Of a DNA stretch of 14,487 nucleotides, positions 4,069 to 8,114 are shown in pieces. The notes beneath the pieces were generated by a model that had not been told where the DNA came from, did no database searches, and was given only the letters and a program-made list of their open reading frames with translations. Source of the stretch: an archaeon (GTDB lineage Archaea > Asgardarchaeota > Thorarchaeia > Thorarchaeales > Thorarchaeaceae); NCBI GenBank assembly GCA_024276825.1, contig JAJRWI010000023.1:1-14487 (forward strand), given 5' to 3'. The translations under genes and the position numbers were made by a program. Positions within the stretch are counted from its first letter, which is position 1, and each line of letters starts with the position of its first letter.

Positions 4069-4496
4069 GGCCGGACTACACTACAGGGGCACCTGATTGA
4101 GTAGATGGCGGTGAGGACAATTGATTTTCTATTAAACTTGTCGTTGTGAAAGGTGATTCAAAAGACAGATCAGTAAAACCCGATAAGGCTCACGATTGAA
4201 ATGCTTGAGATTGTTGCCCTGCAATACATTTTTTTGTGAAGATGTGATATTATACAATGGACCGAATAAGTCGGTTGAAAGATTAGCTGATACTCCAATT
4301 TGGTGTTTTATCGCAATCCTTTTATGTTTTTGAAAATTGAGAGCTTTGCTCAAGTTGAATTGCTTCCCGTCCATGCATGGCCATATGATACATAACGTTA
4401 GAGCAGTAGTCATAAATATCACTAGAGACGGCATGTTGCATGTGGCACCAACTCGCATAGGGCTCGTGGCGCAGCTGGAAGCGCAGCAGGCTTTTA

Positions 4497-4520
4497 AGCT
4501 GATGGACTATCAGCAAAGAA
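4497..4520 (+). other. tRNA intron, canonical 37/38, 24 nt
   Basis: Strict BHB: CTTT/AAAG central helix, bulges TA^A and AA^A, outer helix GCTGAT/ATCAGC. Confidence 0.92.
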
Positions 4521-4536
4521 ACCTGAGGGTCGCGGG

Positions 4537-4566
4537 ATCCTTCTCCATTTGGGGGCAGGACGCGAG
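4537..4566 (+). other. tRNA intron, T-arm 53/54, 30 nt
   Basis: Central helix CGCG/CGCG, bulges GG^A and AG^T, outer helix TCCT/AGGA (relaxed HBh'). Confidence 0.85.
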
Positions 4567-4606
4567 TTCAAATCCCGCCGAGCCCGCCACAACTTGTGCG
4601 GACTTG

Positions 4607-4738
4607 GATGAGGGGGCAATACGACTAAGGCAGAAAAAGCGGGGCGACCCACTGCGGCAATATGAACTCAGTTTTCTGAGGTCATGCGTTGGGAAGCGTG
4701 TGTCGGCAGTGGAGGACCCCGTCCCACTCATTAGGTGG
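4607..4738 (+). ncRNA. candidate structured cis-regulatory leader RNA upstream of rpoB
   Basis: Nested helices GATGAG/CTCATT, CGGGG/CCCCG, CCACTGC/GCAGTGG, GGCA/TGTC, ATGA-CTCAG/CTGAG-TCAT, and GCGTT/AGCGT with a GGGA loop. It ends at the SD AGGTGG 4733-4738. Confidence 0.55.
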
Positions 4739-4745
4739 CAAAGTC

Positions 4746-7700
4746 ATGTCAGACAAGAAAGAAAGGGGTAAGTATTGGCCTGTAATAGAGGCATTCTTTA
4801 GTCACTATGGGCTTGTAGGTCAGCACTTAGACTCCTTCAACCGATTTATTCGAGAGGAGCTTCAACAAGTAGTCGATAGTGTTGGAGAGATCAAGCCAAA
4901 GGTGGAGGGATATACAGTACAACTGGGGCGTATTCATGTCATGCCCCCAACCGTACGTGAAGCGGATGGCAGTGAGCATCCCCTATATCCCAATGAGGCC
5001 AGAATTCGAAACCTCACTTATGCAAGTAAGCTCTATCTGGAATGCACACCCGTGAAAAAGGATGGTGGGACAACCACTCATCTGGAAACCCTCGAGATCT
5101 ATATTGGCGACCTTCCAATCATGCTTCGGAGTGAGAAGTGTCTTCTACATGGCATGTCCGATGAGGAACTCATTGCACATGGCGAGGATCCCAAAGACCC
5201 TGGCGGCTATTTCATCATCAACGGGTCTGAGCGCGTATTAGTGACCCAAGAAGATTTGGCGCCAAACAGGATTCTCATTGAAGAGGCCAGCAAGAGCTCA
5301 AGCTATACCCATATCGCCAAGGTGTTTTCAACATCAAGGGGGTTCAGAGCACCAGTAACCATTGAGAGAAAACGTACTGGGGAATTGCGTGTTTCATTTC
5401 CATCCGTTCCTGGAAAAATACCCCTTGCAATCCTGATGAAGGCATTAGGCCTTGAGTCTGACAGAGAGATCGTCGAGGTAATATCTGATGATGAAGAGAT
5501 TCGAAACGAACTCATTGTGACAATTGAGCAGTCTGCACCCATCAATGCATCTCGTGATGCCGAAGAGGGCTCCACTCGAATCAATGCCCTTGACTTTATT
5601 GGAAAACGAGTCGCAGTTGGCCAGACAAAAGAGTACAGACTTGCACGAGCAGAAAAAGTGCTTGATCGCTATCTATTCCCACACATAGGCACCGAACCAG
5701 AGCATAGGCTTCAGAAGGCTTACTATCTTGGTCAGATGGTGGAGCGCCTGCTGGAACTCGTCTTGGGCAAACGCCAACCGGATGACAAGGACCATTATGC
5801 AAACAAACGACTGAAGCTCTCTGGAGACCTGTTGATGTCCCTGTTCAGAGTCGCATTGTATTCACTCACTCGCGACATCAAATATCAGTTGGAACGTACA
5901 GCCGTACGTGGGAGAAAACCAAATATCAAGACAGCAGTCCGAGCAGATGTCATCACTCAGAGGCTGAAGCATGCATTAGCCACTGGAAACTGGGTGGGTG
6001 GGAAGGCTGGAGTGTCACAGTTACTTGATAGGACAAATTACATATCATCACTCTCACACCTCAGGAGAGTTGTTTCACCCTTATCACGATCACAACCCCA
6101 CTTTGAAGCACGAGACCTTCATTCAACTCACTGGGGCAAAATATGTCCAAATGAAACCCCTGAAGGTCCAAACTGTGGTCTTGTCAAGAACATAGCAATG
6201 ATGGCCTACATCTCGGTGGGTACTGATGAGGAGGCCGTCGAACGCGCACTACTAAGGGCTGAAGTCGAACCTATTGAAAACCTCAAGGGCAAGCGTCATA
6301 CTAAATGGGCTGATGTGTTTCTCAACGGCAGACTTGTTGGAATTCATCCTGCACCGCAGGTTCTTGTGAAGGTGATTCGACAGAAGCGTCGTGCTGGAGA
6401 GATTGACAACGAGGTCAATATCGCATACTATGAGGATACAAACGAGGTGCAGGTAAACTGCGATGCTGGACGTGTCCGACGACCACTCATAATTGTTGAG
6501 AATGGAAAGAGCCGTCTGACCGACGAGCACCTTAAGATGATTGAGAGCGGTGAATGGGGATTTGTTGATCTTTTGCGAAATGGCATCGTCGAATTCCTTG
6601 ATGCTGAAGAGGAAGAGAACACCCTGATTGCAATGTATCCCTCTGATATCAATAAGAAAACAACACACCTTGAGATTGAACCCTCTACAATCCTTGGGAT
6701 TTCTGCAGCACTCATCCCCTTCCCCGAACGAAACCAATCCCCCCGAAATGTGTACATGGCCGCCATGGTCAAACAATCAGTTGGTGTGCCAGCATCAAAC
6801 TTCAAATATCGTGCAGACACAAGAGCCCACTTCTTCCATTATCCGCAGGTCCCGCTAGTCAAAACCAGAGCAATGGACTCAATAGGATACGAGGAACGTC
6901 CCGCGGGACAGAACTTTGTTGTTGCAATACTGTCCTTCGAGGGCTATAACATTGAAGATGCACTCATCATGAACAAGGCCTCTATTGAACGCGGTCTTGG
7001 CAGGAGCACCTTCTGTCGTGTATATGAGAGTGAAGAGCGAAAATATCCTGGCGGACAGGAGGATAAGTTTGAGATTCCCAACCGGAGTATCAGAGGATAC
7101 AGGGCGTCTGAGGCATACCGAAATCTTGGAGAAGATGGAATCATTGAAACCGAGGTGGAGGTACAGGGCGGTGATGTCTTGATTGGTCGCACCTCACCAC
7201 CCAGATTCCTTGAGGAATATTCAGAGTTCGATATCACATCTCCTAACCGTCGTGAAACCTCTGTGGCAGTGAGGCATGGAGAGTCTGGTGTCGTCGACAG
7301 CGTTATTCTCACCGAAACAATTGATGGTAATCGTCTGGTAAAAGTAAAGGTCAGAGACCTCAGAATTCCCGAACTTGGTGACAAGTACGCCTCTCGACAC
7401 GGGCAGAAGGGTGTCCTTGGCTATATTGTTCCTCAAGAGGATGTTCCATTCACAGAGGACGGTGTTGTCCCAGACCTGATTATCAACCCACACGCAATCC
7501 CAAGCAGAATGACAATCGGTCAAATCATGGAGATGATTGCTGGGAAAGCAGCAGCTTTGGATGGACATCAACAAGATGCCACTGCCTTCAGTGGTGTCAG
7601 TGAGGAGGAACTGTTCAAGATACTCCACAAGCATGGCTTTCAGTGGAATGGCCGCGAAACCATGTATTCGGGTATCACAGGTGAACGCTTGCAGGCCAAT

Positions 7701-8113
7701 GTATTCATTGGCGTCTGCTACTACCAAAAACTCCATCATATGGTTGCTGACAAGATCCACGCCCGAGCCCGCGGACCCGTACAGATTCTGACCCGTCAGC
7801 CAACTGAGGGTCGTGCCCGAGAGGGCGGTCTCAGGTTCGGTGAAATGGAACGTGATGTACTCATCGGCCATGGTGCAGCAATCCTTCTCAAGGGACGACT
7901 GCTTGATGAGTCCGACAAGAGTAACATGCTGGTCTGTGAGGAGTGCGGCCTTATCGGAGTATATGACCGCAACAAGGATCAGTACTATTGCCCCATCTGT
8001 GGCACAGGCACAAAGATTAGCAGCGTCATCGTGTCTTATGCCTTCAAGCTCCTCATCCAAGAGATGATGTCTCTTGGCCTCGCCTGCAGACTTAGACTAA
8101 AGGAGATGATCTA

Positions 8114-8114
<1 letters not shown>
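4746..8114 (+). CDS. rpoB: DNA-directed RNA polymerase subunit B (Rpo2, unsplit)
   Basis: Motifs [55 protein letters not shown] and a C-terminal Zn ribbon. Start moved to ATG 4746, which follows SD AGGTGG. Confidence 0.98.

Follow-up and report, generated by a model that had tools for sequence, protein, structure and literature searches.

The locus and its question

In a genome from the archaeal family Thorarchaeaceae, the RNA polymerase operon begins with rpoB, and 156 nt separate rpoB from a tRNA-Lys gene. What does this spacer contain, and does it control the operon? We analyzed a stretch of 14,487 nt from this genome (GenBank assembly GCA_024276825.1, contig JAJRWI010000023.1), which we refer to as the window. 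An earlier note, made from the letters of the window, had proposed that the spacer encodes a multi-helix RNA that lies directly 5' of the ribosome-binding site of rpoB, and the fold, its covariation, and its position all bear this out. We propose that the element is a lineage-specific structured RNA that serves as a cis-acting leader of the rpoB mRNA in Thorarchaeota and is recognized by a trans-acting factor. Judging from sequence comparisons, we give this reading a probability of roughly one-half.

The tRNA gene (4460 to 4589, + strand) is for tRNA-Lys(UUU), is interrupted by intron insertions, and encodes the CCA end; the tRNA model from Rfam matches 4460 to 4586 with a score of 44 bits and a 56-nt insertion. 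The spacer runs from 4590 to 4745. rpoB (4746 to 8114, + strand) begins with the ATG at 4746, is unsplit, and encodes 1,122 amino acids that match domains 1 to 7 of Rpb2 in Pfam. It is the first gene of the operon, and rpoH does not precede it. ORFs 3' of rpoB lie at the positions expected for rpoA' and rpoA'' (these were assigned by position in the list of ORFs), and downstream of the position of rpoA'' are ORFs with Pfam matches to eL30, a NusA-like KH protein, and uS12.

The intron insertions of the tRNA-Lys(UUU) genes (4460 to 4589 in the window, and loci L002 to L100) differ by genus. There are none, one, or two of them, in the anticodon region, the variable region, or the T-arm, and the exons and the encoded CCA are constant. 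Upstream of tRNA-Lys, the gap between divergent tRNA genes is filled by an ORF of 108 amino acids (4132 to 4458, - strand) that has no match in Pfam.

A three-armed fold ahead of rpoB

The element has about 90 bases and a three-armed fold. Its core, at 4639 to 4722 of the window, is built from helices P1, P2, and P2b, which lead to a three-way junction from which hairpins P3 and P4 extend; all of it is on the + strand. The inner stems in the earlier note (P1, P2, the bulge at 4705, P2b, the junction, P3, and the second hairpin) are real and conserved.

The core is preceded by a variable 5' flank (4590 to 4638), which ends in an A-rich linker; roughly 10 nt ahead of P1, this linker has the motif AGAG(C/U)A, whose conservation is loose. 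In P1, GCGGGG at 4639 to 4644 (ACGGGG in the family's consensus) pairs with CCCCGU at 4717 to 4722. Next comes an internal loop, with CGAC at 4645 to 4648 and AGGA at 4713 to 4716. This symmetric 4x4 loop had been singled out beforehand; it is present in the window, but it is not typical of the family. At 4645 to 4648, most relatives have a C followed by GG and C, with the GG in G.U pairs and the last C in a C-G pair. In place of the 4x4 loop, most members have a C.C mismatch beside two G.U pairs, or else a 1-nt bulge.

P2 (4649 to 4655 with 4706 to 4712) and P2b (4656 to 4659 with 4701 to 4704) are separated on the 3' side by the bulged G4705, and P2b closes the three-way junction. The junction strand J2b/3 (4660 to 4663) contains an AUG that is conserved in the relatives; in the window's genus, 4662 and 4663 pair with 4684 and 4685, which lengthens P3. 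P3 itself (4664 to 4671 with 4676 to 4683) has the loop UUUU in the window. Across the family, the P3 loop has 4 to 10 nt and is U-rich, and it includes UUC in all members except for a divergent copy in the sixteenth genus (G015).

P4 (4684 to 4699) can be drawn in two registers. In the window, AUGC and GCGU close an 8-nt loop, GUUGGGAA, and an alternative register (4686 to 4690 with 4695 to 4699, or GCGUU with AGCGU) with a GGGA tetraloop is also possible. The tetraloop had been the original proposal, but of 43 distinct hairpins, just 20 keep this register intact, and it pairs 77.6% of the cells of the alignment. The register UGC/GC(R), with the 8-nt loop NNNGGGAA, is found in 38 of the 43, with 89.8% of cells paired.

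Finally, the tail (4723 to 4745) includes a near-invariant CC (4723 and 4724), a pyrimidine-rich stretch, the Shine-Dalgarno (SD) sequence AGGUGG (4733 to 4738), and a spacer. If P1 is shifted to use this CC, the resulting register (GGGCGG with CCGUCC) fits about equally well, with 96.4% of cells paired, and shows no two-sided changes among the aligned members.

Folding energy and covariation

The whole spacer folds better than dinucleotide-shuffled controls (z = -2.40, with 1 of 200 shuffles equally good), and the core from 4634 to 4726 does so more clearly (z = -3.34, with 0 of 200). The minimum-free-energy (MFE) structure of the window gives back the inner stems that had been drawn previously, and P1 is present in the unconstrained MFE structures of 57 of 60 full leaders.

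For covariation, we used a model-guided alignment of 65 distinct homologues and 30 base pairs. Standard pairs account for 93.9% of the cells, and when the 3' partners are slid along, pairing falls to 36 to 52%. Two-sided changes occur at 12 of the 30 pairs, as compared to 4.6 ± 1.4 in shuffles, and none of 500 shuffles reached 12; because the model guided the fitting of the alignment, this count favors the structure. One of the two-sided changes is in P1, three are in P2, three are in P2b, five are in P3, and none are in P4.

P1 is paired in 99.2% of cells, and its one double change is from A-U to G-C. The double changes in P2 are from U-A to C-G, from G-C to A-U, and from C-G to U-A. All three pairs of P2b change on both sides (GGC/GUC, AGC/GUU, and GGUAU/AUGCU), and in P3, where 94 to 99% of cells are paired, the changes include CUCGG/CUGGG to CCUGA/UUAGG. 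Covariation thus supports P1, P2, P2b, and P3. P4 and the bases that we propose are recognized are invariant, so they yield no evidence from covariation. Many of the conserved pairs are G.U pairs, which indicates that the folded strand is the + strand, which is also the strand of rpoB.

Several unpaired bases are conserved. GGGA in the P4 loop is invariant, the fifth base of this motif (A) is near invariant (0.98), and C4645 is almost invariant across the members; the AUG of the junction strand is also conserved, and the CC after P1 is near invariant. Two contacts between these parts are possible: GGGA with UCCY (loop to tail) and GGGAA with UUCU (loop to loop). All of the bases in these contacts are invariant, so covariation cannot test them.

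Distribution and gene order

When we searched the DNA of relatives, the central part of the element turned up in other genera, at about 75 to 78% identity. A first covariance model, built from 16 loci, had one match per genome in 73 of the 86 genomes of the family, representing 15 of its 16 genera. Two genomes had two matches each. Both are metagenome-assembled genomes (MAGs) with 6 to 7% contamination, and in the one whose extra copy we read, that copy also adjoins rpoB. Besides this family, the class includes one other genome, which had no match to the covariance model.

We then built a second model from 70 members. Of 26 genomes sampled from the family, 23 had a match to it, as did the window's own genome. 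Among 124 other Asgard genomes, no match was significant (the only two were weak, with E = 0.036 and 0.6). As far as these searches of genome sequences go, the element is restricted to Thorarchaeota. We examined three of the family's genomes that had no match: in one of them, rpoB is at the edge of a contig, and in a second, a search with the first 300 residues of RpoB gave no match. In the sixteenth genus (G015), which lacks a match to the model, we recognized a divergent copy by eye: it has P1 as ACGGA/UUCGU, P2 as UGUUACAG/CUGUAACA, a junction with two hairpins, and UGGGAA.

The order of features does not vary. In loci that reach far enough upstream, or that have called starts, we always found tRNA-Lys(UUU) with its CCA, 37 to 56 nt, the element, 19 to 28 nt, and the start of rpoB. 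(The neighboring tRNA-Lys was counted in all of the loci that we read with sufficient upstream sequence, and the 37 to 56 nt are measured from P1 to the tRNA.) rpoB is directly 3' of the element in the first 16 loci, as determined with tblastn, and also in 57 of the 65 distinct members, which are those with a callable start codon. The distance from the end of P1 to the start of rpoB stays within 19 to 28 nt, and the SD sequence, which we defined against the end of the Thorarchaeal 16S rRNA (GGAUCACCUCCU), is 1 to 8 nt ahead of the start.

Inspection by eye of the 37- to 56-nt flank between the tRNA and P1 found neither a T-run terminator nor a TATA-like box, which fits a single transcript that runs from the tRNA into rpoB. 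Perhaps tRNA-Lys and rpoB are co-transcribed.

In a sister family (G037, at L109:1288-1500), the adjacency of tRNA-Lys and rpoB is kept, with an AT-rich spacer of about 210 to 213 nt that lacks the element and has its own long hairpin (UGGUC...GACCA). In another Asgard family, one genome (G038) shows the classical order, with rpoH followed by rpoB.

Comparison with known classes of RNA

The earlier note did not recognize the RNA as 5S rRNA, SRP RNA, SECIS, or a known riboswitch, and our searches agree: at the gathering thresholds, none of the 4,227 models in Rfam 15 matched 4590 to 4745, and the neighboring tRNA was the only match. A search of 501 nt at E ≤ 10 again found the tRNA and nothing in the spacer. 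More specifically, the spacer had no match to the tRNA covariance model at E ≤ 10, and ARAGORN found no tRNA in it.

We also compared the element to known motifs. Inspection of 65 aligned members did not reveal a kink turn (K-turn), with its 3-nt bulge and tandem sheared G.A and A.G pairs: P1 and P2 are separated by a C.C mismatch with G.U pairs, and paired GA dinucleotides are absent from the strands of the junction. In the same alignment, the CUGA that a C/D box would have reads CUGG in most members, and there is no conserved ACA 3' of P1, as would be expected for an H/ACA box. The potential GNRA tetraloop is not closed by a stem in all members. No expression platform of a riboswitch, whether an alternative pairing of the SD sequence or a terminator, is conserved, and no T-run terminator was seen. 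The element does resemble a riboswitch aptamer in being conserved with covarying helices, and it resembles the leaders of ribosomal protein operons in lying beside the ribosome-binding site of an operon, with P1 ending 19 to 28 nt before the start of rpoB.

We considered whether the element mimics rRNA, using the 23S rRNA and the partial 16S rRNA of the window's genome and the full 16S rRNA of a relative. We found matches of just 7 to 10 nt, with E = 0.1 to 20, which is the level expected by chance and makes no convincing case for mimicry. Among these matches, the 10-mer ACGGGGCGGC, which is the family consensus for the 5' strand of P1 and P2, is also found near position 231 of 16S rRNA in two genera (the window's own, L193, and G005, L194). 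In addition, a gap of 4 nt separates UUGGGAAG from AAACGGG in 16S rRNA near 836 to 856, and each of these matches is at chance level. We take this part of 16S rRNA to be the helix-27 region, which uS12 contacts. As the operon encodes uS12, we count this pair of matches as the best lead from the comparison, and as a weak one.

An upstream ORF that begins at the AUG of the junction was rejected: it stops after five codons in the window, and the indels in the P3 loop are not multiples of three.

A full-text search of the literature did not find a description of the element. Apparently, this RNA family has not been described before; its general kind, the structured leader of an operon, is known.

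How the element might act

The element is single copy, its fold covaries, it is on the same strand as rpoB, and the distance from it to the downstream ribosome-binding site of rpoB is fixed. It probably serves to control the production of RNA polymerase. The element would be part of the rpoB mRNA and would control the operon in cis. The near-invariant unpaired bases, namely, GGGAA in the P4 loop, UUC in the P3 loop, the region of the C.C mismatch and G.U pairs, and the CC that follows P1, would be read by a trans-acting factor, most likely a protein encoded by the rpoB operon or else RNA polymerase itself. About 10 nt separate the fold from the SD sequence on its 3' side, so a bound factor could act without any pairing to the SD sequence: it could obstruct the small ribosomal subunit or trap it. 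Alternatively, the bound factor might alter the decay of the mRNA once the tRNA is excised.

A more specific proposal, which we offer tentatively and regard as possible rather than probable, is that this might be the first dedicated RNA operator for the synthesis of archaeal RNA polymerase. Its ligand would be RNA polymerase, uS12, uS7, eL30, the NusA-like KH protein, or a small molecule, and through it the expression level of the entire rpoB-rpoA-eL30-nusA-S12 operon would be set in an Asgard lineage.

Could the element instead be a processing or stability element? If tRNA-Lys and rpoB share a transcript, then a fold near the new 5' end could guard the mRNA against 5'-to-3' decay or mark a site of processing. 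The invariable order of tRNA-Lys-CCA, element, and rpoB, the short distance of 37 to 56 nt from the tRNA to P1, the lack of an obvious terminator or promoter by eye in that flank, and the high stability of the long stem are all consistent with this. However, a protective hairpin requires neither invariant loop bases nor a three-way junction nor a fixed distance to the start, and the sister family (G037) has the same order of tRNA-Lys and rpoB without the element. We therefore consider this explanation to be unlikely, and since a hairpin that merely stabilizes the mRNA would not need invariant bases in its loops, they count in favor of a leader that is recognized by a factor. It is more doubtful still that the three-way junction is the aptamer of a riboswitch that tunes the synthesis of RNA polymerase in response to a small molecule or ion. 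A junction with highly conserved unpaired bases just ahead of the ribosome-binding site would suit a riboswitch, and inspection of the alignment suggests that UUC in the P3 loop and GGGAA in the P4 loop could touch, as the loops of purine riboswitches do. But no riboswitch in Rfam matches, there is no conserved expression platform, the only genetic context is related to neither metabolism nor transport, and the sequences of P1 and P3 are conserved beyond what pairing alone requires. We also doubt strongly that a separate gene for a trans-acting small RNA merely happens to lie between the tRNA and rpoB. Although the sequence is highly conserved, and although the adjoining tRNA gene could supply a promoter and processing, only 19 to 28 nt, with no T-run, separate the 3' strand from the start of rpoB. 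Furthermore, there is no second copy elsewhere (the two-copy genomes are the contaminated MAGs), there is no C/D or H/ACA box, and a search of the genome for the P4 hairpin pattern found one more match, as expected by chance.

The least probable of these explanations, in our judgment a very remote one, is a conserved switch in which the 3' strand of an outer helix pairs instead within the tail and masks the SD sequence. The window does allow both states. The outer helix (4607 to 4617, within the variable 5' flank, with 4721 to 4732; 11 bp) has a duplex energy of -20.5 kcal/mol (z = -2.76), CCACU can pair with GGUGG, and the probability that the SD sequence is unpaired is 0.21. The outer helix is therefore real in the window, but it does not extend to the family: across 59 leaders, the 5' flank pairs with the tail no better than shuffled versions of the flank do (mean z = -0.07, with 5 of 59 leaders below -1.64). 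Similarly, the SD sequence has no fixed partner, as its partner in the MFE structure may be in the 5' flank, the tail, or the coding region, or it may have none; on average, it is 42% unpaired across the leaders. With neither the outer helix nor an SD partner conserved, the mutually exclusive switch that had been proposed for this leader is not supported as a general mechanism.

Relation to known systems

The preferred reading, a leader that is recognized by a factor, has counterparts in the autogenous leaders of bacteria (the L10 leader of rplJ, the feedback on rpoBC, and S7 acting on the str operon) and in the candidate leaders of archaeal ribosomal proteins in Rfam. The shared feature is a structured leader beside the ribosome-binding site of an operon for transcription or translation. 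Autoregulatory leaders typically have a narrow, class-level distribution (PMC3616713). The element shares this kind of distribution with the autogenous leaders, along with conserved loop bases that would suit a protein. It differs from them in that it does not match their sequences or models, in that its matches to rRNA are at chance level, and in that it is at the head of an operon that begins with rpoB, in an Asgard archaeon.

Riboswitches with three-way junctions, such as the purine and TPP riboswitches, share with the element a P1 stem, two hairpins at the junction, loops that are able to touch, and a location upstream of the ribosome-binding site. In contrast, the element has a long stem of P1, P2, and P2b before the junction, has no match in Rfam, lacks a conserved expression platform, and is in a nonmetabolic context. 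The K-turn operators that bind eL30 or L7Ae, as in the pre-mRNA of yeast RPL30, are another potential parallel, as eL30 is encoded in the operon and the window's copy has a purine-rich internal loop. However, the consensus of the family lacks a 3-nt bulge with tandem sheared G.A pairs, and the 4x4 loop is specific to the window. In tRNA-punctuated transcripts, such as those of mitochondria or those with the t-elements of haloarchaea, a tRNA upstream of an mRNA may define the mRNA's 5' end. In contrast to these, an additional conserved fold follows the tRNA here, and the tRNA model does not match it.

To our knowledge, few cis-regulatory RNAs have been validated in archaea, and we did not find any described for Asgard archaea in the literature. 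Nor do we know of a mechanism that balances the synthesis of archaeal RNA polymerase. Here, an RNA family that is supported by covariation is tied to a single essential operon. It offers well-defined targets for mutagenesis (GGGAA, the P3 loop, and P1), so the question of how RNA polymerase is controlled becomes directly testable.

The element also marks a rearrangement of the operon that is specific to Thorarchaeota, with tRNA-Lys in the place of rpoH, and perhaps the element arose as the tRNA gene took over the head of the operon from rpoH. In the window's genome, rpoH is away from the head of the operon, on another contig (C77, L105:1168-1737, + strand), and encodes 189 amino acids. Its product has an N-terminal domain that resembles restriction endonucleases (Mrr_cat in Pfam, E = 1.2e-6), followed by the C-terminal domain of Rpb5 (E = 6e-28), a layout of domains that recalls full-length eukaryotic Rpb5.
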